Positions 33,003 through 62,000 of a stretch of 64,000 nt of DNA are shown piece by piece; within the stretch, counting starts at the first letter, position 1; each line of letters starts with the position of its first letter. The translations under genes were made by a program, and so were the position numbers. This DNA comes from Pseudobutyrivibrio sp. (GTDB lineage Bacteria; Bacillota; Clostridia; Lachnospirales; Lachnospiraceae): contig JAILKL010000068.1 of assembly GCA_024693775.1 (NCBI GenBank), positions 12,938 to 76,937 on the forward strand, written 5' to 3'. The notes beneath the pieces are model-generated. The model did not search any database. It worked only from the letters and a program-made list of their open reading frames with translations, and was not told the DNA's origin.

Positions 33003-36000
33003 AGAACAAACCTTAGTACGTGATACAAGAAACAAAAATATGCTTGTAAGTGCAGCAGCCGGTTCTGGAAAGACCTATGTTCTTGTACAGCGTATTATCA
33101 CAGAAATTCTCGACAAAGAAAACGGAATAGATGTAGATAGAATCTTAGTGGTTACCTTTACCAATGCAGCAGCTGCAGAGATGAAGGACAGAATCAGAAA
33201 AGCCATAGATGATGCGGTGGTGGAAAATATATCGGATTCACGTATTCGTACCCAGGCCACATTGATTCACAATGCTCATATTCGTACCATAGACAGCTTC
33301 TGTAATTGGGTTGTAAAAAACTATTTCTATGAAATAGACCAGGACCCAGGCTTTAGAATAGGCACCTCAGGTGAAATGAAGATGCTAGAGGATGAGGTGT
33401 TCTCAGATTTATTAGGCCAAAAATTAGAAGAGGCTGATGAGGATTTTATGCTCTTAGCAGATGCTTATATCAGTGGTCGAAACACTTCAAAGCTAGCAAA
33501 TCTAGTCTTTGAATTACACGACAAGGCATCCAGCTTTCCATGGGTAAATGAATGGTATGACCAGGCATTAAAGCTATATGATTATGATTCTATAGATGAG
33601 ATGGAGTCTTCATTATTTATAGATGAATTGCTCACTCTATCCAATAAAATAATCGATAATTTAATAGAGAGATTACGACCATTAGTAAAATTATATGATG
33701 AGGATTGTGGATCAAAGGATAAGACAATCTTTTCTAATGAGCTGGTGATGATGTGCAGCTTGCGAGATGCCAACACCTACACTGATAAAAGAGCCATTCT
33801 TCAGGGCATGACCTTTGATAGATTTGCATCAAAGGGAACCTGCTTAAATGAGGACGAACTGGCTAAGGCCAAGGAGCTTAGAGACTTATATAAATCGGAA
33901 TTAAAAACTCTCAAGGAGAGCTACTATAATCTTGATTTAGAAGAGCTTTTTGACTGTATGATGTTTGTAAAGCGTCAGGCCACAGCCCTTATTAGCTTAT
34001 CAAAGGATTACGCCAAGAATTTATCAGAAACAAAAGCAAAAAAGAATATCTTTAACTTTAATGATATAGAGCATATGGCTCTTGAGATTCTTAGAAATAA
34101 AGACTCTAAGGAGCACGAAAAAAGACCCGTCGCAATAGAGCTTACCAATCATTTTAAAGAGGTGATGGTAGATGAATATCAGGATTCAAATGAGCTTCAG
34201 GAGCAGATTCTTACTGCCATTTCAAACGGCAGCAATTATTTTACTGTAGGTGATGTAAAGCAGTCTATTTATGCTTTTAGACAGGCGGACCCACAGCTGT
34301 TTATTGATAAGCTTAATACTTATCCTATGGATGATAGCTCAAACAGTATTCGCATTGATCTGGACAAAAACTTCCGTAGTAGAAAACAGGTGCTAGAGTT
34401 TTGTAACCAGGTATTTGCGCCTATGATGCAGGCGGATATGGGTGGTGTCTCCTATGATGAAAAGGCAGCCCTAAAGGTTGGAGATGAGACCTTTAAGGGC
34501 GACGAAAATGATTATGTTTCAGAGCTACTTATAGCCGAAGAGGATTCTGATGCAATGGCAGAGCTTGGCCTGTCAAATAATGATGAGCTAGAAGCCAACA
34601 TGGTGGCAGCAGAGATATCAAAGCTCATGTCCACAGACTATATGATTAGTGCAAAGGGCGAATCAGGAGAAAGAGAGCTACGCCCACTTCGTTTATCCGA
34701 TATTGTTATTATCATGCGAGCTACTACTGGGCATGCAGATGTTTTTATTAATGTATTAAAATCCAAAGGCATCGCTGCTTATGTGGCTGAGGAAAAGGGC
34801 TTCTTTGATAGGGAGGAAATCGAAACGGTTTTATCAATGCTACAGGTTATTGATAATCCATTTAACGATATTCCACTTGCAGCAGTTTTGCACTCGCCTA
34901 TGTTCGGCTTTACCTCAGAGGAGCTGGCAAAAATAAAGGCATCTTATAAGGATGAATCCCTTTATGCATCAATTACTAAATATCATGAGGAAAACACCGG
35001 CTCTAAAAAGTTAAATAGATTCTTTGAATTGCTAAATCAGTTTAGAGACCAGGTAATGGATACACCTATTCATGAGATGATAGAAAACGTACTAAAGGAT
35101 ACTGGATATGGTATATACGTTAGTGCATTGCCTCAGGGAAAGGGCTGCACAGCAAACCTGGATAAATTGATTGATGAAGCAGTCAATTTTGAGAGCACCA
35201 GCTACAAGGGACTCTCTAGATTTGTTAGATATATAGAAGGACTCAGAACCTATGATGAGGATTTAGGCCTGGCCAAAACTGTCAGCGAAAGCGATGATGC
35301 AGTTCGAATTATGACAATTCATAAAAGTAAGGGACTTGAGTTTCCTATTGTATTTGTCAGTGGTTGTGGCAGGGGAATTCAAAAGGAAAATGGTGCCTAC
35401 TATTATGATAAAAAATTAGGACTGGCTTTAAATTATCTTAATCCAAATACTAGAATTACTTACAAGACTCCATTTAGTAATGTAGTTAGAGCAAGACTAA
35501 ATGCTGACTCAAAGGGAGAATACCTTAGAATTTTATATGTTGCCCTTACAAGAGCAGTGGACAAGCTATATATAACTGGCTGTATCAAGCCTACCAAGGA
35601 CAAATCCTGTGCAGATATAGTCGAGTCCTATTCGGCCAATTCCAGTGTTTTAGATTATTTATCAAAGGCCAATTCAAACTCCAGCTTAGAGCTAATTATT
35701 CGCTCTTTAAATGCCTCAGGAGTTTCCTTTAAAAAGCATATTTATACCTGCCAGGAATTATTTACCCAGGAGGTAAAGGATGAGATTCTTCGCCAGCACG
35801 CAAAGCTTTTAATAGATGATATGCTAAAAAATATAGATGACAATGCTGGAGAAGATATTCATAACAATTTAAACTTCGAATACGAAGGCCTATCAGACAG
35901 CAGCTATAAGAGCAAGTACTCTGTATCAGAGATAAAGCATCAGGCCATGGAGGATGCCTTTGGCTTTAATCAGGATGCAGCCCCTGCCTTTGTGTTTCAT

Positions 36001-49931: not shown

Positions 49932-52900
49932 TTAAGCATCTTTTTTATTTAAGTTTTTGTTTGCTGTAGAAAGCATTAACTTAATACGGTTAAGCTGATT
50001 TACCTCTGATGCACCTGGATCGTAATCGATAGCTACGATGTTTGCATCTGGATGCTCATGGCGAATTCGCTTAATAACACCCTTACCAACAACGTGATTT
50101 GGTAAGCAACCAAATGGCTGAATACAGATAATGTTGCTTGCGCCAGTTTCGATAAGCTCTAGCATTTCGCCTGTAAGGAACCATCCCTCACCAGTCTGAT
50201 TTCCAAGAGAAACGATTTCCTTAGCATTAGCAGCTGTGTCTGTAATATATGCTGGAGCAGTAAATCTCTTAGACTTATTGAACTCATCTCTAGCTGCAGA
50301 TCTAAGCCACTCAAAGAACTTTATTCCCATGTTGCAATAGAACTTAGTCTTCTTGCTTGCACCAAGGTTTTCTTCTTTAAAGTTTGTGTTATAGAAGCTG
50401 TATAGTAAGAAGTCTGTTAAGTCAGGAACAACAGCCTCAGCACCTTCCTGCTCGAGTAAGTCTGCTAAGTGGTTGTTTGCTGCTGGAAGGAATTTTACAA
50501 GAATTTCTCCAACAATACCAACTCTAGGCTTCTTTAAATCTTCATGTATTGGAAGATTATCGAAATCTCGAATCATTTCACGGCACATCTTCTTAAACTT
50601 GCTATGAGAAAGAATCTTGTCATTTGAAATGAAATCAATAACCTTTTTCTTCCACTGCTCATGAAGCTCATTTGTAGAACCTGGTGTTAATTCATAAGGT
50701 CTAACTCTATATACACATCTTAATAGGATATCACCAAATGTAAGTGCATATAAGCCATGCTGAATAAGACTAGGTGTAAGCTTGAAGCCTGGGTTCTTCT
50801 CGAATCCGTTAAGGTTAAGAGAAATTACAGGAACATCTGGATAGCCAGCCTTTGCAAGAGCTCGTCTTATAAATCCGATGTAGTTTGAAGCTCTACAACC
50901 ACCACCTGTCTGAGAAATCAAAAGAGCAGTACGGCTCATATCAAAATCACCAGTATCGATAGCAGCCATAAGCTGACCGATTACCATGAGTGATGGATAA
51001 CATGCATCGTTGTTTACATATTTAAGTCCAACATCTACGCAAGTACGTGTTGGGATGTCTGGAACTACCAGATTGTATCCGGCTGCATTAAATGCAGGCT
51101 CGATTAAATCAAAGTGGATAGGTGACATCTGTGGGCAAAGAATTGTGTAATTCTTTTTCATTTCCTCTGTGAAAACTACACGATTGTAATTTGCAGGGAC
51201 AATTTCACGTTCAGTATGACGCTTTTTCTTTACACGTAATGCTGCAAGAAGCGAACGAACACGGATTCTTGCTGCACCAAGATTGTTTACCTCGTCAATC
51301 TTTAGGCAAGTATAAATCTTTCCAGACTGTGTAAGAATATCAGCAACCTGATCTGTTGTAACGGCATCAAGACCACATCCAAATGAGTTGAGCTGAATTA
51401 AATCAAGGTTATCATGCTTCTTTACGTAGTTTGCAGCTGAGTACATACGAGAATGGAACATCCATTGATCCATAACAATAAGTGGACGCTCTACTTCACC
51501 TAAGTTAGAAATAGAATCCTCTGTAAGTACGGCAATACCATAGCTGTTGATAAGCTCTGGAATACCATGGTTAATCTCAGGATCAACGTGGTATGGTCTA
51601 CCAGCAAGAACGATACCATGCTTTCCAGTTTCCTCAAGATATTTGAGAACTTCCTGGCCCTTAGCATACATATCATTTCTAAAGTTTTCCTGCTCTAACC
51701 AAGCTGCATGAGCTGCTTCTCTGATTTCTGTACCAGGAATATCGAATTCCTGCTTAAATACCTTGGCGAGCTGCTCAGTAAGAATTTCCTCGCTTGAGAA
51801 TGCCATAAATGGATTTAAGAATCTAACCTTACCTGATGTAATTTCATCTACATTATTTTTAATGTTTTCAGCGTATGATGTTACGATAGGACAGTTGTAA
51901 TGATTGTTTGCATCAGGGAACTCATCTCTTTCGTATGGTACACATGGATAATAAATGAAGTCTACGTTTCCTTCGTTGATTAACCACTGAACGTGACCAT
52001 GTGTTAACTTTGCTGGATAACATTCTGACTCTGAAGGAATTGACTCAATACCAAGCTCATATACCTTTCGGTTTGAACGAGGTGAGAGAACAACTCTGAA
52101 TCCAAGCTTCTTAAAGAATGTTGCCCAGAATGGATAGTTTTCATAAAGATTAAGAACACGAGGAATACCAACTGTACCACGAGTCATTTCCTCTTCTGAT
52201 AATGGTTCATAATCAAATAATCGATTGTATTTATATTCGTAAAGGTTAGGGATGTTTTCCTTATTTTTAACACCGCCTGCACCCTTTTCACATCTGTTAC
52301 CTGTGATGAATGAACGTCCGCCTGAGAATCTATTAATTGTTAATAGGCAGTGGTTTACACAACCCTGGCAACGTGTGAGCTTTGTATCAAAAGTAAGATT
52401 ATTGATCTCATCAATACCAAGTGTAGTAGTTGTAGGATTTTCTTCGTATCTTTCCTTTGCGATAAGAGCACAACCAAAGGCACCCATAATACCTGCAATA
52501 TCAGGACGAGTAACCTCAACACCAGCTACCTTTTCAAGAGATCTAAGTACGGCATCGTTGTAGAATGTACCACCCTGAACAACGATATTCTTTCCAAGCT
52601 CTGAAGCATCAGAAAGCTTGATAACCTTAAATAATGCATTCTTGATAACAGAGTATGCAAGACCTGAAGAAATATCAGCAACGCTGGCGCCTTCCTTCTG
52701 TGCCTGCTTTACCCTTGAGTTCATGAATACAGTACATCTTGTACCTAGGTCGATTGGGTTGAGTGCGAATAAAGCTTCCTCAGCAAAATCCTGTACACTA
52801 AAGTCAAGTGACTTAGCAAATGTCTCGATGAATGAACCACATCCAGAAGAACATGCCTCATTTAACTGTACACTGTCTACAACACCATTTTTGATGCGGA

Positions 52901-54188
52901 TACATTTCATATCCTGTCCACCGATATCAAGGATACAGTCAACATCAGGATCAAAGAATGCTGCAGCATAATAATGAGCGATAGTTTCTACTTCACCATC
53001 ATCAAGCTGAAGAGCGGCCTTTAATAGTGCTTCACCGTATCCAGTAGAGCATGAGTGCACAATGTGAGTATCCTCAGGCATAATCGAATAGATTTCTTTT
53101 AATGCGGTAAGTGATGTTGCAAGTGGACTACCATTGTTACTAGAGTAGAATGAGTAAAGAAGAGTACCATCTTCACCAACTACAGCAAGCTTTGTGGTAG
53201 TAGAACCGGCATCTATACCTAGATACACATTTCCATGATAATTTGCTAGATCGCCCTTTTTAACTTCTGCTTTTGCATGACGATCCTTGAATGCTCTAAA
53301 GTCTTCTTCAGATTCAAATAATGGATCTAATCGAGCAACCTCGAAGTCCATCTTGATACCCTCAGATAACTTGTCGATAAGTGTGTCCATTGGAAGATGA
53401 TTTTCTTCCTTTGAATTAAGTGCAGAACCAATAGCTGCAAAAAGATGTGAGTTGTCTAATTCAATGGCATGCTCATCATCTAGCTTTAATGTTCTGACAA
53501 AGGCTTCCTTTAACTGGTCAAGGAAGTGAAGTGGTCCACCTAAGAATGCAACGTGGCCACGGATAGGCTTTCCGCAGGCAAGTCCAGAAATAGTCTGGTT
53601 AACAACAGCCTGGAAAATAGATGCTGATAAATCTTCCTTAGAAGCACCTTCATTGATAAGAGGCTGAATATCAGTCTTTGCAAATACACCACAACGAGCG
53701 GCGATTGGATAAATTGCCTTGTAGTCCTTTGCATACTGGTTTAGGCCAGGAGCATCTGTCTGAAGAAGAGAGGCCATCTGGTCAATAAAGGAACCAGTAC
53801 CGCCGGCACAAATACCATTCATTCTCTGTTCAACATTTCCGTTTTCAAAATAAATGATTTTAGCATCTTCACCACCAAGCTCGATAGCGACATCTGTCTG
53901 TGGAGCGTAGTGAGTAAGTGATGTAGAAACAGCAATTACCTCCTGTACAAATTCCACACCGAGATGCTTAGCAAGAGTCAAACCGCCTGAGCCAGTAATC
54001 ATTGGGCGAACCTCAATTTTTCCAAGCTTTGACTTTGCCTGTGTTAATAAATCGGTGAGAGTTTGCTGTATATTAGCAAAATGCCTCTGATAATCTGAAA
54101 ATAATAAATTGTTGTCATCATCTAAGACAGCAACTTTTACAGTAGTAGAACCGATATCGATTCCGAGTTTAAATAATTTGTTCTCCAT
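49932..54188 (-). CDS. Multidomain 2-hydroxyacyl-CoA dehydratase activase-related protein (2x BcrAD/BadFG ATPase + DUF2229)
   Basis: GIDIGSTT and [34 protein letters not shown]; start ATG 54188 after AGAAAG. Confidence 0.85.
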
Positions 54189-54353
54189 AAAAACTTTCTT
54201 TCTTATTAAAATATAGTTTCTAATTATGCAACATTTCGTATTATAAATGTCCTGTAAAAAAATGACAATAAACAAATAGTAAAATATGTAGGAACATAAC
54301 CTTTTGTTGTAATTTAAAACACCGTATTTTATAGTAATAATAGGAGTATAAAT

Positions 54354-54905
54354 ATGGTAAGAGAAAAGTTTATTGTTAAATTAGACAATATAATAGCTGC
54401 AATTATGGGAATAACTATATTTTTCTGCCTCACAAAGTGTCAGATTCCATATAGAATTATTCCCGGAACAGATTTTCAAATTAGACAGGTTTTTCTATCA
54501 ATCATAGCAGCTATGTATGGACCAGTTACCGGAGGGGTAGTAGGTCTCTTCGGACATTTATTGTCTGATGCCTTATATTATGAAAATATCAGCTATGGTT
54601 GGATAGCTGCAGACTGTATATATGGCATACTCATTGGATATTTCTTTGATGATTACAAGGTCCTATTAGGCCAGTTCAAGAAAATCGAGATATTTAGATT
54701 CAATATGATTCAGCTGATTGCAAATGCCATATGCTGGCTTATCGTTGCACCATTTATAGATATGACATTGTTTGATGAGCCAGTTGACAAGGTGGTTGCT
54801 CAGGGCTTCTTTGCGTTTATCAGCAATTTTGTTTTAATATTTATAATAGGAACACTAGTGCTTTTATTAATTTCATTTTGTGTTAATAAAAAAATAGAAA
54901 AATAG
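54354..54905 (+). CDS. ECF transporter S component (UPF0397-like)
   Basis: [18 protein letters not shown]; six predicted TM segments. Confidence 0.75.
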
Positions 54906-54949
54906 AAAATTTTATCTTTACAAAAGACTGGGTACTGTTGTAATATTTC

Positions 54950-55012
54950 AAAGTACAAGGGCGTACTTTTTTAGACGAGAGCTTTCTCGTTTAAAAAAAA
55001 ACGCTCTTTTTT
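54950..55012 (+). promoter_or_regulatory. ANTAR-type hairpin overlapping a leader terminator
   Basis: AAAGTAC-AAGGGC-GTACTTT hexaloop (A1, G4) is mutually exclusive with the terminator AAGGGCGT...ACGCTCTT+T run. Confidence 0.7.
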
Positions 55013-55029
55013 CATTTTAAGGAGGAAAT

Positions 55030-56283
55030 ATGTCGCAGTATTCTATTGATGATATTGTAGAGTTCGTTGTTGAGAATGACGTAAAATTCATACGTCTAGC
55101 CTTTTGTGACCTCTACGGAACACAAAAAAATATATCGATAATGCCAGAAGAGTTGAAACACGCCTTTGAAGAAGGTGTTAATTTCGACTCTTTTCTTATT
55201 TTAGGCTTTGATGATTCTAGAAGTCAGGATTTATTTTTAAAGCCTGATCCAGATACACTTAGAGTTTTGCCTTGGAGACCACAGGCAGGCCGTGTTATTC
55301 GTTTCTACTGTAATATCGTTATGGCTGATGGTACACCATTTATATACGACTATAGACATTTCTTGCAGGAGACAATAAAGGAGTGTAATGAGCTTGGGTT
55401 CTCTACAAGAATGGGATTAAAATCCGAATTCTATCTATTTAAAGAGGATGAAAATGGAAATTCATCTGGCGAGCCATTTGACAATGGTACTTATTTAGAT
55501 GTCGCTCCAGCAGACAAGGGCGAAAACATTCGTCGTGAGATTTGTCTTACATTAGAAGAAATGGGCATCATGCCACAATCATCACATCATGAAAGAGGTC
55601 CAGGTCAAAACGAAATAGATTTCACCTCTGCTGATGTACTTACTACTGCGGACAATTTTGTTACATACAAGAATGTAGTTGAAAACATTGCTAGTAGGAA
55701 TGGAGTAGTTGCATGCTTCGATCCAATGCCAATCGAGGATGCTCCTGGTAATGGATTACATATAAAGATGGCAAATTATAAGGGGGATGTTAATCTTCAA
55801 AGAGAAGATAAGGATTTCTCCGAAGGATTTATGGCGGGAATTCTTGGAAGAATGAGAGATATTACATTATTCCTTAATTGCAGAGAGGATTCTTATGATA
55901 GATTTGGCGTTTCAGAGGCTCCAAAATACATTACATGGTCATCACAAAATTTATCTAGATTATTCAGGGTCCCAGAAATAAATGGAAGAAGAGATCACTT
56001 CATTCTTAGATCTCCAGATTCATGTATTAATCCATATTTAGCCAGTGCGATTATTATTCAGGCTGGTCTAGAGGGCATTAGGAAAGGAGAAAAGCTTCCA
56101 CCATCTCTCGAAATTAATTCTAGAGATTTAACAGAAGAGAATGCGGCTGTATTAGAAATGCTTCCACTTTCACTTTCTGAGGCTATTGATTGTGCTGAAA
56201 ACTCAGATTTCTTAATGAAGTCAAGCTTTGCTGATTTGGCAAAAAGATACATTGATATCATAAAAGAAAGCCAAGAAGTATAG
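55030..56283 (+). CDS. Glutamine synthetase-like protein, catalytically degenerate
   Basis: VKFIRLAFCD, HHERGPGQNEI, GNGLH, LRSPD, NPYLA retained; several active-site residues substituted. Confidence 0.85.
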   Translation: MSQYSIDDIVEFVVENDVKFIRLAFCDLYGTQKNISIMPEELKHAFEEGVNFDSFLILGFDDSRSQDLFLKPDPDTLRVLPWRPQAGRVIRFYCNIVMADGTPFIYDYRHFLQETIKECNELGFSTRMGLKSEFYLFKEDENGNSSGEPFDNGTYLDVAPADKGENIRREICLTLEEMGIMPQSSHHERGPGQNEIDFTSADVLTTADNFVTYKNVVENIASRNGVVACFDPMPIEDAPGNGLHIKMANYKGDVNLQREDKDFSEGFMAGILGRMRDITLFLNCREDSYDRFGVSEAPKYITWSSQNLSRLFRVPEINGRRDHFILRSPDSCINPYLASAIIIQAGLEGIRKGEKLPPSLEINSRDLTEENAAVLEMLPLSLSEAIDCAENSDFLMKSSFADLAKRYIDIIKESQEV

Positions 56284-56293
56284 GAGTACATGT

Positions 56294-56866
56294 ATGGAAA
56301 GGGCATTGATTGTCTGCGATTCCGAAAAAGGTACTTTATTTTATAAATCATTTCTTAAGGAAAATGGAATACTCGATATGCTTGTGGCAGTAAATGGGCC
56401 GGAAGCAAAACGAAAAATATCAGATTACGATTTTGATTTATGTATTATAAATGGTCCAATTAATGGAGAAACTGGCGAGCAGCTATCAATTGATATAGCT
56501 GAAAAAAATATTTGCCAGGTTATTCTCTTTGTAAAAGCGGAACGCATAGAAGAAATTACAGAACACGTTGAAGATTATGGCGTTATCACTGTGGCCAAGC
56601 CAATCAACAAGCAGTTATTCTGGCAGGCCTTAAAGCTTGCAAGAGTTGCTCAAAGGCGTATTACAATGGCTCAAAAGCAAAATGCCAAGCTAGAGAAAAA
56701 ATTAGAAGAAATGAAAACCATTTCTAGAGCAAAGCTTTTACTTATTACAAATGAAGGCTTTACCGAGGAAAGTTCTCATAAATATATTGAAAAACAGGCA
56801 ATGGATCTGCGACTTAGTCGTGGGGAAGTAGCTGAAAAAATAATAAAGAAATATGAAGGAGTTTAA
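56294..56866 (+). CDS. ANTAR antiterminator with pseudo-receiver domain (NitR/AmiR-like)
   Basis: Receiver fold with DLCIIN and KP; coiled coil; [13 protein letters not shown]...YIEKQAMD. Confidence 0.9.
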
Positions 56867-56867
56867 A

Positions 56868-58466
56868 ATGACAAAGCACGTATTTGTTACAGGTGGTGTA
56901 GTATCAGGCTTAGGAAAAGGTATTACAGCTGCGTCTTTAGGACGTTTACTTAAGATGAGAGGGTATAAGGTTGCTTCACAAAAGCTTGATCCATATATGA
57001 ACGTGGATCCAGGTACAATGAGCCCTTACCAGCATGGAGAGGTTTTTGTTACAGATGATGGTGCTGAGACAGATTTGGATTTAGGACATTATGAGAGATT
57101 TATCGATGAAAGTCTCAACAAGTATTCTAATCTTACATCAGGAAAGGTTTACTGGAATGTATTAAATCGCGAGAGAAAGGGAGAGTACTTAGGTCAGACT
57201 GTTCAGGTAATCCCTCATATCACAGAAGAAATCAAAAGATTTATTTATATGGGTGCAGAGACATCAGATTGCGATGTTCTTATTACCGAGATTGGTGGAA
57301 CTACAGGTGATATCGAATCACAGCCATTCCTTGAGGCCATTAGACAGGTTTCATTAGAAAAGGGACGTGAGAATTGCCTATTTATCCATGTAACATTGGT
57401 TCCATGGTTATCTGGTTCAGAAGAGCACAAGTCAAAGCCTACACAGCATTCAGTAAAGGAGCTTCAGTCACTTGGAATAGCTCCAAATATTATTGTTTGC
57501 CGCGTAGATCATCCATTAGAGCAGTCTATCAAGGATAAGATTTCATTATTTTGTAATGTTAAAAAGGACTGTGTAATCGAAAATGATACACTTGATTGCT
57601 TATATGAGGCACCTCTTATGATGCACAAGTATGGTTTAGACGATGTAGTATGTCGTGAGCTTGGCCTTGAAAACCGTACTCCTAAGATTGAATCATGGGA
57701 AAAAATGGTAGAAAATATAAAAGGTCTTGAAAAAACTACCAAAATTGCTATAGTTGGTAAGTACGTTGCTCTTCATGATGCATATTTATCTGTTAGAGAG
57801 GCCCTTTATCATGGTGGATATGCTAACAATACTCATGTAGAAATTGAGTGGGTTGATTCAGAAGAGATTACAAAAGAAAACGTAAAAGACATATTAGGAA
57901 ATGTTGATGGTATTTTAGTTCCTGGTGGATTTGGCGATAGAGGTATCGAAGGTAAAATCGCAGCTTGCCAGTTCGCTAGAGAAAATGATATTCCATATCT
58001 TGGTATTTGCCTTGGAATGCAGATTGCAGCAATCGAGTTTGCTAGAAATGTTTGTGGTATTTCAGATGCAAATTCTCGTGAGTTCAATAGCAATGGAAAG
58101 AATTGCGTCATCGATCTTATGGAAGAACAGATGGCAGTTCTCAGAAAAGGTGGTACAATGAGACTTGGCGCTTATCCATGTGCTATCAGACCAAACACAA
58201 AGCTTTTAGAGGCTTATGGAACAGAAAACATTTCTGAAAGACATAGACATAGATTTGAGTTTAATAATTCATATAGAGAAGTAATGACAGAAAATGGTTT
58301 GACCATCTCAGGAACTTCACCTAACGATGAGGTTGTAGAGGCAGTTGAGGTTTCAGCTAACAAATTCCACGTTGGAGTTCAGTTCCATCCAGAATTCAAG
58401 AGCCGTCCAAATAAGCCACATCCACTTTTTGCCGCTTTCATTAAGGCTAGTTTGGGGAATAACTAA
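56868..58466 (+). CDS. pyrG: CTP synthase
   Basis: [32 protein letters not shown]. Confidence 0.97.
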
Positions 58467-58530
58467 TCCTTGATATCAGGGCTTTTGCCTTGCTATAAAT
58501 TAAATTAATCTAACACAAAGGGAGGACACT

Positions 58531-59958
58531 ATGTTAGAAAAACAATTTAAACTCAGCGAAAACAATACTTCTGTTAAAACAGAAATTATCGCTGGACTTA
58601 CCACATTCATGACAATGGCTTATATCATTGCATTGAATCCAAATCTTCTCACAGGTTATGGCGCAGGCGGAAAGGAATTATGGAACGGCGTATTCCTTGC
58701 AACATGTATATCATCAGCTATCGCTATGTTTGTTATGGCATTCTTAGCTAACAAGCCATTCTGTCTTGCTCCAGGTATGGGTCTCAACTCATTCATGGCA
58801 GCGGTTATCGGAAACCTTGTAGCTATGACAGGCATGGGATATGTTGAGTCATTCCAGTCTATGTTATGTATCATCTTCATAGAAGGTGTAGTTTTCTTAA
58901 TCCTTTCTCTTTTAAACATCAGAGAAAAGATTGTAGATGCTATTCCACTTGGAATCAGACTTGGTATTTCGCCAGCTATCGGTCTTATGCTTCTTAATAT
59001 TGGTTTTGGTTCAAACGTATACATTGCTAACAAGGATGGAGTTCAGTTCTTCGCAATGAAAGACTTCTTTGGTGCACTTACTGCATCATATGCAAAGCAG
59101 ACTATGACTGACGCTTATCCAGTTATGGTTCTTTCAGTTGTCACAATGTTCGTAGGTTTATTTGTAATTGTTGTTCTTGCATCAAAGGGAGTAAAGGCAG
59201 CTGTTATCCTTGGTATGCTTGTTTCATCTATTCTTTATTGGGTAGGTGATGCACTTGTACTAGGACAGAATCCTTTCGCTAGCCTTGCTACTGCATCATT
59301 TGTTCCAGCATTCAACGATATGGCTCAGACAACATTGTTCAAGCTCAACTTTGCAGGTTTAACTCAGATGGGTTGGTTTACTGCAGTTACTCTTGTAATT
59401 ACATTCTGCATTATCGATATGTTTGATACAATTGGAACACTTGTAGGTACAGCTTCACGAGCTGGTATGGTTGACAGAGAGGGCAACATGCCAAACATGA
59501 AGGAAGCTCTTCTTTCAGATTCAATTGGTACACTTGTTGGTTCATGCACAGGTACTTCTACAGTTACTACATTTATCGAGTCTGCTTCAGGTGTTGAGGC
59601 AGGTGGACGTACAGGTCTTACAGCACTTACATGTGGTATTGCATTCCTTGCATGTATTTTCCTTGCACCAATCGCTGCAATTATTCCAGCAGCAGCTACA
59701 TCAGCAGCACTTATCTATGTTGGTGTACTTATGATGACAGGACTTAAGAAAGTAAACTTTGATGACCTTTCAGTATGTGTACCTGTTACAATCATGCTTA
59801 TTGCAATGCCTATTTCAGGATCAATTGGTCACGGTATTGGACTTGCTATGATTTCTTACACAGTTATCAAGCTTTTCACAGGTAAGGCAAAGGAAGTATC
59901 AGCACTTACATATGTAATTTCTGCACTTTTCCTTATCAAGTTCTTCTTAGCAGTTTAA
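58531..59958 (+). CDS. NCS2/AzgA-type purine permease
   Basis: TEIIAGLTTFMTMAYI, APGMGLN, FDTIGT, ESASGVEAGGRTGLT. Confidence 0.9.
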   Translation: MLEKQFKLSENNTSVKTEIIAGLTTFMTMAYIIALNPNLLTGYGAGGKELWNGVFLATCISSAIAMFVMAFLANKPFCLAPGMGLNSFMAAVIGNLVAMTGMGYVESFQSMLCIIFIEGVVFLILSLLNIREKIVDAIPLGIRLGISPAIGLMLLNIGFGSNVYIANKDGVQFFAMKDFFGALTASYAKQTMTDAYPVMVLSVVTMFVGLFVIVVLASKGVKAAVILGMLVSSILYWVGDALVLGQNPFASLATASFVPAFNDMAQTTLFKLNFAGLTQMGWFTAVTLVITFCIIDMFDTIGTLVGTASRAGMVDREGNMPNMKEALLSDSIGTLVGSCTGTSTVTTFIESASGVEAGGRTGLTALTCGIAFLACIFLAPIAAIIPAAATSAALIYVGVLMMTGLKKVNFDDLSVCVPVTIMLIAMPISGSIGHGIGLAMISYTVIKLFTGKAKEVSALTYVISALFLIKFFLAV

Positions 59959-59986: not shown

Positions 59987-60021
59987 AAAAAAGCGATGCT
60001 ACGAAAGTAGCGTCGCTTTTT
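59987..60021 (+). terminator. Intrinsic terminator
   Basis: AAAAAGCGATGCTAC-gaaa-GTAGCGTCGCTTTTT. Confidence 0.85.
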
Positions 60022-60211
60022 AATTTGCCATTGTATTTGAAAATATATTGAAGGATATTTTATGAAATTATAAGAACAGTCTATATAAAAAAATTCTTTA
60101 ATATAAATATAGTTTTGGTCTAACCTTAAAACATGGGATTAAATAGGGACACCACAAAGGCTTATACTTCTAAACAGTTAGTAAAACGTAGCTGTGAAGG
60201 AGGTAATCATA

Positions 60212-60406
60212 ATGAAAAAAAGAGGATTAGATAGAGAGTTAATTATTTCGTTGGGAGTGATAGCGCTTTTATTAGCCATAGGAATTGTCTTCATGGTCCT
60301 ATTTTTATTTGACATTGATATCACAAAAAATCTTTCAAGTGTAATAGGCTCATATTCAGGACTTTCAGGGTCTATCTGGTTGTTTCTTCTATGTAGAAAT
60401 TGTTGA
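60212..60406 (+). CDS. Small membrane protein (64 aa)
   Basis: Strong RBS AAGGAGG, ATG 60212, one clear TM helix. Confidence 0.55.
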   Translation: MKKRGLDRELIISLGVIALLLAIGIVFMVLFLFDIDITKNLSSVIGSYSGLSGSIWLFLLCRNC

Positions 60407-60431
60407 CTATGTTTAGTGGTTTACCTATAAT
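60403..60431 (+). promoter_or_regulatory. sigmaA promoter
   Basis: TTGACT-17 bp-TATAAT. Confidence 0.75.
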
Positions 60432-60515: not shown

Positions 60516-62000
60516 ATGAAAAAATTGTTTAGAAAATCTATTAGTTTAGTGGCGACACTTGTGCTTATTTTATCTATGAGTAATGTTGCTTTTGCACAGG
60601 GCACCACATCTATTTCAGTAACAAAAAGCTCAGTTGATGTTGGAGGCAAAACAACAGTTTCAGTTACAGCTTCAGAGAGCGGTACAGTTACAGTTAAATA
60701 CACAGCAAGCTTATTAAATTTAAATAGTTGTTCTGCATCAGGATACTCAGCAGAAGGTAATTCAGTTACATTCTCTGGAAAGTCTGGAGATTTAGAGTTT
60801 ATAGCAGCTGCCGAAGGTACAGCATCTATAATCGTGTCTTCGAGTGCATGCTCCGGCAGCAGTACTACAATTACTGTTGGTGGTTCATCAGCTTCAGATA
60901 GCGCTGCTACAGAGACAAAAGAGACTACTGATACATCAACAGAGGCCACAGAAGAGAATGCCACAGAAGAAACTACAGAAGAGACTGATACTACTGCAGA
61001 AGAAACAGAGGCAGCATCAGAAACTACAGCTGCACCTTCAGCATCAGCCGTCGGCACATTAAATTCAGATGGCGGATTTGACATTGATGGTGTTTCTTAT
61101 GTTGTGTCTGAAAGATATTCAAGCTCAGAGATTCCTTCAGGTTTCTCTAAGAAGACCATTACTATAGGCTCTAGCACATATAATGAGCTCAGCAATGGAA
61201 CAATCACACTTGTTTATTTAAAGCCAGCTGATAATACATCTGGTTCTGGAACATTTTACATTTATGATGAGGCTGCTAGTTCAGTATCTAGCTTCCTATA
61301 TTTAGGCAGCTCTGATAATTACGTAATTATTTCAACAGCAGATGCTACATTATCTAGTGCTATGACAGAAACATCACTAGAAGTTACTGGTGGCACAGCT
61401 GTTGCTTATACAGTTGATGGCTCAGAGTTCTTCTATATATATGGTACAAACCAGGACGGATATACTGGATGGTTTGTTTATGACAAGACATACGATACAC
61501 TTTCTCGAGTAGATACATCGTCTATTGGTACTTCATCTACAGAAGACACCAGCAGCGATACTTCATATGATGTCACAGAAACATATACTAAAAAGCTTGA
61601 TTTATTTAGAAAAATTATTTCTGCTCTTGTAGTACTTTGCGTAGTTTTATTATTCGTAATTATTAATATGTTCTTCCGTCGTTCAAACGAGGATGATTCA
61701 GAAGATGATATTTTTGCTACAAAGTCAGAAAAGAAATCAATTAGATTCCCACGTTCAATTGTCTTTAGAAAAGATGATGACGACGATATTTTCAGCAAAC
61801 GAGGCAATGATTATGCTGATGATGAAGACGAGGAGTATGATGAGGATGAAGAAGAACTAGACGAAGATGAGTTAGATGTAGATGAGGAATATGACGACGA
61901 GTATTACGACGAGGATGATGAAGAATACGAAGAGTCTACTCCTAGCTATTCAAGCTCAAATAGCGCTAGTTTAAATATGATGGATTTAAATGACCTATAA
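60516..62000 (+). CDS. Secreted/membrane-anchored protein: cohesin-like beta domain, T/E-rich linker, TM, acidic tail
   Basis: Signal peptide (AFA), Ser/Thr-rich beta region, TM near residue 375, D/E-rich C-terminus. Confidence 0.75.
   Translation: MKKLFRKSISLVATLVLILSMSNVAFAQGTTSISVTKSSVDVGGKTTVSVTASESGTVTVKYTASLLNLNSCSASGYSAEGNSVTFSGKSGDLEFIAAAEGTASIIVSSSACSGSSTTITVGGSSASDSAATETKETTDTSTEATEENATEETTEETDTTAEETEAASETTAAPSASAVGTLNSDGGFDIDGVSYVVSERYSSSEIPSGFSKKTITIGSSTYNELSNGTITLVYLKPADNTSGSGTFYIYDEAASSVSSFLYLGSSDNYVIISTADATLSSAMTETSLEVTGGTAVAYTVDGSEFFYIYGTNQDGYTGWFVYDKTYDTLSRVDTSSIGTSSTEDTSSDTSYDVTETYTKKLDLFRKIISALVVLCVVLLFVIINMFFRRSNEDDSEDDIFATKSEKKSIRFPRSIVFRKDDDDDIFSKRGNDYADDEDEEYDEDEEELDEDELDVDEEYDDEYYDEDDEEYEESTPSYSSSNSASLNMMDLNDL

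Follow-up and report, generated by a model that had tools for sequence, protein, structure and literature searches.

A putative glutamine synthetase pseudoenzyme as candidate nitrogen receptor in a probably autoregulated NitR-type operon of Pseudobutyrivibrio

An operon in which a gene for a glutamine synthetase (GS)-like protein (55030-56283) is followed by genes for an ANTAR protein of the NitR type (56294-56866), a CTP synthase (pyrG, 56853-58466) and a purine permease (58531-59958), all on the forward strand, lies in a 64,000-nucleotide stretch of Pseudobutyrivibrio sp. DNA (assembly GCA_024693775.1, contig JAILKL010000068.1, positions 12,938 to 76,937 of the forward strand), here called the window. 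We lean towards the view that the operon is autoregulated and forms the core of a NitR regulon, and that the GS-like protein, which we infer from its residues to be catalytically inactive, serves as the receptor that sets the activity of the NitR antiterminator. The pair probably forms the nitrogen switch of the cell, and would also govern the only pyrG found in the assembly. The source is a rumen or gut Pseudobutyrivibrio-like metagenome-assembled genome (MAG) that is 82% complete, and the genome scans reported below covered 2.34 Mb.

The GS-like protein has 417 residues, resembles the GS-I-alpha type, and scores above the Pfam cut-offs for both domains of the family (Gln-synt_N, 71 bits; Gln-synt_C, 243.5 bits). 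An AlphaFold2 model has a confident GS-like fold (predicted local distance difference test, pLDDT, 87.8; predicted template modelling score, pTM, 0.90). All NCBIfam enzyme scores are far under their cut-offs, among them those of the GlnA equivalog model TIGR00653 (282.6 bits, cut-off 429.15) and of the gamma-glutamylputrescine synthetase model (188.6 bits). Residues were mapped by alignment to the solved enzymes of Methanosarcina mazei and Bacillus subtilis. In the numbering of the Salmonella typhimurium enzyme we take the n2 metal ligands to be Glu129, His269 and Glu357, the catalytic aspartate to be Asp50, with Glu327 in the flap and the arginines Arg321 and Arg359, and the arginine of the NRS motif to be Arg339. 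The motifs that the original prediction had quoted, including those kept around the amino-acid site, are all present in the translation: FDSFL (52-56), GLKSEF, HHE, GQNE, GNGLH, SEAP, QNLS and HFILR. Lysine K131 stands at the first Glu of GxExEF (the Glu129 equivalent) and isoleucine I325 at the Glu of RxExR (the Glu357 equivalent), which leaves H244 as the only one of the three n2 ligands; leucine L308 occupies the position of the NRS arginine. The n1 ligands E133, E188 and E195 are kept, as are D53, the flap glutamate E296, R291 and R327. The protein is also about 22 residues short of its intact relatives at the C-terminus and lacks the last helix, in agreement with the earlier claim that an inter-ring helix is missing; in M. 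mazei GS the C-terminal helices H14 and H15 form the ring-to-ring contact (PMC11957540).

The same pattern is seen in orthologues of 413-423 residues from more than 50 Lachnospiraceae species, which have intact reading frames and 55-81% identity, and whose alignment contains more than 130 invariant columns. Position 131 is K, R, N, S or H in 55/55 of these sequences and position 325 is I or V in 54/55, and the n1 ligands, D53, H244, E296, R291 and R327 are invariant in the clade. Position 308 is more variable: it is Asn in close relatives, and across the clade about half of the sequences have N, S, G or Q there and the others Arg. As to the earlier question of whether the substitutions are conserved in ANTAR-linked GS homologues, the losses at positions 131 and 325 extend across the clade; the L308 substitution is correct for the window and fails as a clade feature, and catalytically intact GS also occur next to ANTAR genes. 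The ratio of nonsynonymous to synonymous substitution rates (dN/dS) of the GS-like gene is 0.014-0.10 in ten pairs, as low as that of the ANTAR gene. The gene is under strong purifying selection and is not decaying.

A comparable loss of catalytic residues is found elsewhere among NitR-linked GS proteins. In a maximum-likelihood tree (a quick search, unrooted) the Lachnospiraceae pseudo-GS proteins are monophyletic with a support of 100, and an Agathobaculum-type degenerate group together with locus L069 is nested among intact GS with a support of 96. This second degenerate group comprises Agathobaculum and a Coprococcus MAG, and has the motifs GTASEF, RMKVR and FNAAA. In the wider NitR-linked set the flap Glu is replaced by K, S, N or G, His269 by R, N, K, A or Q, and Asp50 by N, S, K or Q; different lineages lose different catalytic residues, with the GS-like gene still adjoining the NitR gene. 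On this tree and these alignments, catalytic residues appear to have been lost independently at least twice. We also note a set of short NitR-linked GS-like proteins of 396-404 residues in Oscillospiraceae and Acutalibacteraceae (loci L156, L157, L162, L163, L166 and L167), in which both n2 glutamates are kept and a lysine replaces the flap glutamate, and where pyrG is often directly downstream.

The ANTAR protein contains a clear ANTAR domain (PF03861, residues 131-184; 51.4 bits, cut-off 27.3), preceded by a receiver-like region that matches Response_reg at 27.1 bits, under the cut-off of 30.2. As had been noticed, asparagine N53 (DLCIIN) occupies the position of the phospho-acceptor aspartate; D9-S10 (VCDS) stands for the acidic DD pair, and K102-P is kept. 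The prior observation that no kinase is nearby also holds, in that no HATPase_c match above threshold lies within about 65 kb on the contig. The acceptor position is Asn in 79/80 loci and in most of a wider set, and this is so even beside a fully intact GS of 439 residues; the pseudo-receiver is therefore a trait of the NitR family and is not specific to the window. The ANTAR gene of the operon is the only one found in the assembly.

The association with a GS or GS-like gene is nearly constant when viewed from either side. Just 10 nt separate the GS-like stop from the ANTAR start in the window, and in all 78 of the 78 loci with enough downstream DNA an ANTAR gene is the next gene after the GS gene, usually at a distance of 10-45 nt. 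Starting instead from the ANTAR genes, a GS or GS-like gene is directly upstream in 74 of 78 assessable loci, and such loci reach as far as Oscillospiraceae, Christensenella, Treponema and Endomicrobia. The exceptions to the pairing are the NitR-like ANTAR genes at L114, L141, L165 and L168, which do not have a GS or GS-like gene directly upstream. A complex prediction from alignments of the GS-like and ANTAR proteins gave a score of 0.01 and no answer, and it counts neither way.

The leader of the operon has the features expected of an ANTAR target. A consensus scan and the upstream sequences of relatives place a sigma-A type promoter (TTTACA, 18 nt, TAATAT) at 54917-54946, and it is conserved as CTTTACAAA ... 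TGTnGTAnnnT ahead of the leader in related Lachnospiraceae. Within a few bases of it begins a hairpin, P1 (AAAGUAC-AAGGGC-GUACUUU; 54950-54969), with an ANTAR-type A1/G4 hexaloop closed by a C-G pair. P1 overlaps an intrinsic terminator (54957-55012), identified by folding and covariation, that consists of an 8 bp stem (54957-54964/55001-55008) and a 14 bp stem (54967-54980/54985-54998) followed by UUUUCAUUUU. The GGC of the P1 loop and the 3' stem of P1 pair with ACGCUCUU (55001-55008), which forms the base of the terminator. The leader fold has a z score of -4.5 relative to shuffled sequences. The terminator fold (-26.2 kcal/mol) is more stable than the best fold in which P1 is forced (-17.7 kcal/mol; P1 alone, -5.2), so that termination is predicted to be the default and P1 would need a protein to win.

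Among 93 distinct related leaders the hairpin has the consensus nnAC-AAnGGC-GUnn, in which loop positions A1, A2 and G4 are invariant, and compensatory changes occur at all five stem pairs (covariation score 0.835, compared to 0.23 in shuffled and at most 0.14 in slid controls). These examples were picked for at least four paired positions, so that their pairing percentage follows from the selection, unlike the diversity of their pair types. The P1 stem and the terminator 3' arm also covary, with GAAC/GUUC accompanied by ...CGAACGCC and CACAC/GUGUG accompanied by CACCCC. The proposed competition between an ANTAR hairpin and a terminator is therefore borne out, since the 3' arm of the terminator takes up the 3' half of P1 by pairing and both covary. 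The claim of two canonical A1/G4 hexaloops is not: only one is present, and a search of the leaders for a conserved second A..G hexaloop hairpin found none, the upper terminator stem being variable and capped by tetraloops or other loops. From these features the leader appears to be a variant, with one hairpin only, of the ANTAR target that Ramesh et al. described (PMC3369931). A CTTTAC...GTAAAG inverted repeat upstream was considered as an RNA stem and rejected; because its register differs between loci, it is read as the -35 and -10 boxes of the promoter. A search of Rfam at E <= 1 gave sub-threshold chance matches only and no family for the leader, and the Glutamine-II match (18.4 bits, cut-off 33 bits) lies inside the permease coding sequence.

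Similar leaders are found elsewhere in the genome. A permissive scan for hairpin plus terminator gave 834 matches and was uninformative; a stricter scan gave 31, of which three are convincing, all on contig C96 and all in sense. They precede gltB-gltD, asnB-glnN (glnN encoding a type III GS, GSIII) and a gene for an AmtB-PII fusion of 581 residues (C96 19-1764, reverse strand), in which the ammonium transporter carries at its C-terminus the sole full PII domain found in the assembly. With the leader of the operon itself this makes four hairpin and overlapping-terminator sites before recognisable genes in the 2.34 Mb, and all are before nitrogen genes. The bare motif ACAAnGGnGT is at chance level (55 genome matches, 46-67 in shuffles), so that only the full hairpin and overlapping-terminator architecture is specific. 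The presence of one leader type at gltBD, asnB-glnN and amtB-PII, together with a single ANTAR gene, indicates a general nitrogen regulon, and from the leaders the module appears to be a master NitR-type nitrogen regulon and not a circuit specific to pyrG and purines. The original prediction was hence right in placing pyrG under the leader and too narrow in its view of the circuit.

On the earlier question of whether an intact GS exists elsewhere, the genome contains two GSIII genes. The second of these, on contig C51 (about 34305-34781, reverse strand), has no NitR-type leader before it; it follows the terminator of an upstream gene and may be a constitutive copy. A possible fifth leader on contig C127 was rejected, as it has a 3-bp stem and no gene after it, and a PII-like fragment is present at the edge of contig C25. 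At ten other loci (L059, L067, L069, L071, L076, L078, L079, L081, L083 and L084), in Oscillospiraceae, Desulfosporosinus and relatives, a divergent pair of NitR-type leaders about 200 nt apart lies approximately 5 kb upstream of the GS gene, with ACAGC-AAAGGC-GCUGU on one strand and GAAC-AAAGGC-GUUC on the other, which suggests two divergent regulated operons.

The start of pyrG overlaps the 3' end of the ANTAR gene by 14 nt, and its product, a glutamine-dependent CTP synthase, contains CTP_synth_N (414.1 bits) and a class-I glutamine amidotransferase domain (145.5 bits); the gene is single-copy in the assembly. In most Lachnospiraceae loci, and among distant Clostridia in many, it comes after the ANTAR gene, and there are many loci with the GS-like/NitR pair whose operon has no pyrG. 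In five Pseudobutyrivibrio and Butyrivibrio genomes the pair is located behind gltD and pyrG is unlinked, and in all five a separate copy of the promoter, P1 and terminator precedes the unlinked pyrG; one such leader keeps a five-codon remnant (MSHLS-stop) of the GS-like start. With its own leader copy, pyrG would stay under the switch whatever its position, and on this evidence it appears to be a true regulon member. At three loci (L088, L089 and L091) the pyrG leader is followed by a short open reading frame (ORF) of about 14-20 codons and then by a second terminator-like hairpin before pyrG (GGAGUYGAAAG...CUUUCGACUCC and a U-run), perhaps a tandem pyrimidine-specific attenuator; this is not present in the window because pyrG overlaps nitR.

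The last gene of the operon encodes an NCS2 permease of the AzgA/AGZA type (Xan_ur_permease, 111.9 bits), whose closest solved relative is the plant adenine/guanine permease AZG1 (E 1.4e-61). Source annotations give it as AGZA/NCS2, and by homology it is predicted to be an adenine/guanine/hypoxanthine permease. It is in the operon only in a Pseudobutyrivibrio subgroup. A weak 5-bp hairpin 3' of pyrG (58468-58481) could act as a partial terminator ahead of the permease gene, so that the inclusion of the permease in the operon transcript is likely and less certain. A strong terminator hairpin (AGCGAUGCUAC-GAAA-GUAGCGUCGCU and a U-run; 59987-60021) ends the operon.

The question of which ligand the GS-like protein might sense is informed by archaeal enzymes. 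M. mazei GlnA1 contacts 2-oxoglutarate (2-OG) through F24, R26, R87, R172', R173' and S189' (PMC11957540), and Methanothermococcus thermolithotrophicus GS does so through R20, R88, R174, R175 and S191, with the added requirement that the residue at Ala34 be neither bulky nor acidic (PMC10799026). The equivalents in the GS-like protein are F20, R22, S36, R83, R168, R169 and S185, and these are invariant or nearly so in 81 proteins of the GS-side set and 74 of the NitR-side set, position 36 being Ser or Ala only. B. subtilis GS, which is reported to be unable to take 2-OG, differs at exactly the three discriminating positions, with Tyr, Glu and Thr in place of F20, S36 and R83, respectively. The arginine of glutamine feedback (R62 in B. 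subtilis, R66 in M. mazei) is Asp or Asn in all loci. The invariant pocket and the missing feedback arginine make 2-OG the more likely ligand family-wide, as judged from these residues, rather than Gln or Glu as first proposed. The residues of the amino-acid (Glu) site are intact in the Lachnospiraceae clade to which the window belongs, and to that extent the proposal survives, with the sensing of Glu or Gln as a second possibility.

A plausible scenario is that transcription starts a few bases before P1 and that, without protein, the RNA folds into the 22-bp terminator and stops before the GS-like gene. By the precedents of EutV, NasR and AmiR, NitR would bind and hold P1, which would remove the base of the terminator and allow RNA polymerase to read through into the GS-like gene, nitR, pyrG and probably the permease gene. 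NitR would then raise ammonium uptake, GS and glutamate synthase (GOGAT), and the amidotransferases GltB, AsnB and PyrG together, presumably under nitrogen shortage, with asnB-glnN supplying a working type III GS within the regulon. Since GltB, AsnB and PyrG are all glutamine amidotransferases, such a response would fit a compensation for scarce glutamine. NitR, not being phosphorylatable, is expected to have a partner protein, as in the AmiR-AmiC and NasT-NasS pairs (PMC3369931, PMC3795266), and the most likely partner is the GS or GS-like protein, the gene of which is the only constant companion of nitR. The GS-like oligomer would most probably bind 2-OG at the subunit interface, the Glu/Gln site being the second candidate, and the ligand would change its conformation or assembly such that the pseudo-receiver of NitR is bound or freed. 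Loss of the ring-joining helix may, speculatively, make this assembly more dependent on ligand; in M. mazei, 2-OG acts as a 'molecular glue' at the subunit interface and drives assembly (PMC11957540).

A wider proposal, which we regard as possible rather than probable, is that in Clostridia of the gut and rumen GS-I-alpha itself does the nitrogen sensing for the NitR regulon, with an archaeal-type 2-OG pocket and direct contact to NitR. Sensing does not need catalysis, and GS could therefore have decayed into a pure receptor several times and independently, wherever GSIII took over synthesis, with CTP synthesis becoming tied to nitrogen in Lachnospiraceae.

Several observations weigh against a receptor function. 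We infer both the contact between the GS-like protein and NitR and its sign, and adjacency alone is expected of any co-regulated pair. Intact glnA-nitR pairs exist, and a working GS can sit there merely as a member of the regulon; the 2-OG-pocket residues are also present in these catalytically intact NitR-linked GS, where the pocket may serve just to regulate the activity of the enzyme, as it does in archaea. The leader has no second hexaloop hairpin, which ANTAR proteins of the EutV type require. The assembly being 82% complete, a further GS-I, ANTAR, PII or pyrG gene could be missing from it. Finally, Lys or Arg at position 131 could replace the n2 cation, and with the n1 site, Asp53, the Glu flap, R291 and R327 intact, residual or altered ligase chemistry is conceivable.

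The last of these points leads to the strongest alternative, which is unlikely on the whole: that the GS-like protein has remained an enzyme, either a GS of low activity or a gamma-glutamyl ligase with altered metal or substrate, which is in the operon only as a regulon member, and that NitR is controlled otherwise, for example by the PII domain of AmtB-PII or by a ligand bound by its pseudo-receiver. Such a protein would account for the clade-wide invariance of the n1 ligands, Asp53, H244, E296, R291 and R327, K/R131 might provide the positive charge that the n2 metal no longer brings, and intact glnA-nitR pairs offer a precedent. The GS family also includes ligases for other substrates, such as that represented by the gamma-glutamylputrescine synthetase model (188.6 bits here), and a PII domain is itself within the regulon. 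However, every GS studied requires the n2 ligands for ATP-dependent phosphoryl transfer, and throughout the clade non-ligands stand in place of two of the three; other NitR-linked lineages have also lost Asp50, the flap Glu, His269 or R344 in varied combinations, as is typical of relaxed catalysis and not of a new defined chemistry. The scores under every NCBIfam enzyme cut-off and the availability of two GSIII genes for real synthesis also argue against a surviving enzyme.

We consider it quite improbable that the GS-like protein serves GSIII or CTP synthase as a regulatory or scaffolding subunit, its link to NitR being transcriptional only. The triad of GS or GS-like gene, nitR and pyrG is widely recurrent, in Oscillospiraceae as well, and higher-order assemblies are known for both GS and CTP synthase. 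Yet pyrG is not in the operon at many loci with the pair, a relocated pyrG takes its leader along and not the GS-like gene, and the invariant neighbour of the GS-like gene is the NitR gene. That the GS-like gene is a functionless decaying relic, as its lost ligands and truncated C-terminus might suggest, has next to no probability and is already refuted by the selection analysis, given the intact frame in more than 50 species, the low dN/dS, the invariant columns and the confident fold.

Many Clostridia of the gut and rumen, among them Lachnospiraceae, Oscillospiraceae and Butyricicoccaceae, appear to rely on NitR antitermination as their main nitrogen control. If the receptor reading is correct, the GS-derived protein would be a new example of an enzyme turned sensor, and would link the archaeal control of GS by 2-OG to regulation at the RNA level in bacteria. 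It would also explain why a protein that probably does not make glutamine has kept the annotation 'glutamine synthetase', a point of consequence when nitrogen use in the rumen is modelled metabolically. The conserved placement of pyrG (the only copy found in the assembly), asnB and gltB under one switch suggests that levels of glutamine amidotransferases are raised when glutamine is scarce.

Among the genes that adjoin the operon, an energy-coupling factor (ECF) transporter S component of the riboflavin type (54354-54905, forward strand) has its end 124 nt upstream of the start of the GS-like gene; it is one of the five co-directional genes of the region and is outside the operon. Divergent from it is a gene (49932-54275, reverse strand) for a fusion protein of 1447 residues, with two BcrAD_BadFG ATPase modules and DUF2229, of the coenzyme A (CoA)-enzyme activase type. 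To the right of the operon terminator is a 70-codon ORF (60194-60406, forward strand; GTG start at 60194 and an in-frame ATG at 60213) for a hydrophobic peptide, which is perhaps not a real gene. It is followed by a gene (60516-62000, forward strand) for a protein of 494 residues that has no Pfam or NCBIfam match, with a promoter (TTGACT-17-TATAAT) at 60403-60431; this protein is kept downstream of the operon in several relatives, with 42-56% identity. A search of sequencing runs returned only four DNA gut-metagenome runs, from one study, and no RNA run.

The closest known systems are the glnA-nitR clusters of solventogenic clostridia, where NitR antitermination of GS/GOGAT genes has been described (PMC6316151, PMC4676874); NitR of Clostridium saccharobutylicum is reported to be an ANTAR antiterminator that induces these genes under nitrogen limitation (PMC6316151, summarising Stutz et al. 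2007). In the glnA-nitR(-gltAB) cluster of C. saccharobutylicum NCP262 and at Clostridium thermocellum Clo1313_2030 (PMC4676874), a receiver-like ANTAR gene comes after a GS-I-alpha gene, and antitermination, reportedly under nitrogen limitation, acts on GS/GOGAT genes, as is predicted for the window. Members of this family with intact GS in our locus set carry the same C-AAnGGC-G leader. The window differs in that its GS lacks n2 ligands and the last helix, synthesis being left to GSIII, and in that the operon adds pyrG and the purine permease. ANTAR leaders ahead of nitrogen genes were already known, and pseudo-receiver ANTAR proteins have been proposed to be under the control of partner proteins (PMC3369931). 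Our literature search found no described NitR sensor, no proposal of a GS gene as one and no account of a pseudoenzyme derived from GS that acts together with NitR, within a limited coverage that is not proof of absence.

The AmiC-AmiR pair of Pseudomonas aeruginosa and the NasS-NasT pair of Paracoccus likewise combine a pseudo-receiver ANTAR protein with a ligand-binding protein from the same operon (PMC3369936, PMC3795266, PMC3369931). AmiC and NasS are receptors with the periplasmic-binding-protein fold, for amides and nitrate respectively, whereas the candidate partner in the window is a GS-fold oligomer whose interaction with NitR is presumed. The relay of nitrogen status by protein contact from a GS-I-alpha enzyme, as would be the case here, has its parallel in the control of TnrA and GlnR by B. 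subtilis GS (cited in PMC6316151). That protein is a working enzyme with glutamine feedback through Arg62, and its targets are DNA-binding proteins; in the window the Arg62 equivalent is Asp/Asn, the would-be target is an RNA-binding antiterminator, and catalysis is apparently lost. M. mazei GlnA1 and M. thermolithotrophicus GS, the best matches of the GS-like protein among solved structures (E ~5e-89), have all of their 2-OG-pocket residues matched by it. They are active enzymes and activity is the output, whereas the output in the window would be the control of NitR, with 2-OG binding predicted from the pocket residues. The eut leaders of Enterococcus faecalis, recognised by the ANTAR protein EutV of the EutV/EutW system, show the same competition of an A1/G4 hexaloop hairpin with a terminator (PMC3369931). 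EutV is a phosphorylated response regulator that depends on a pair of hexaloop hairpins, of which P2 overlaps the terminator; the window has one conserved hairpin that itself overlaps the terminator base. What is new relative to the literature found is a conserved GS pseudoenzyme partner that has arisen more than once, a family-wide pseudo-receiver and an invariant archaeal-type 2-OG pocket, and also a single-hairpin target and the presence of pyrG as a conserved member of the regulon.

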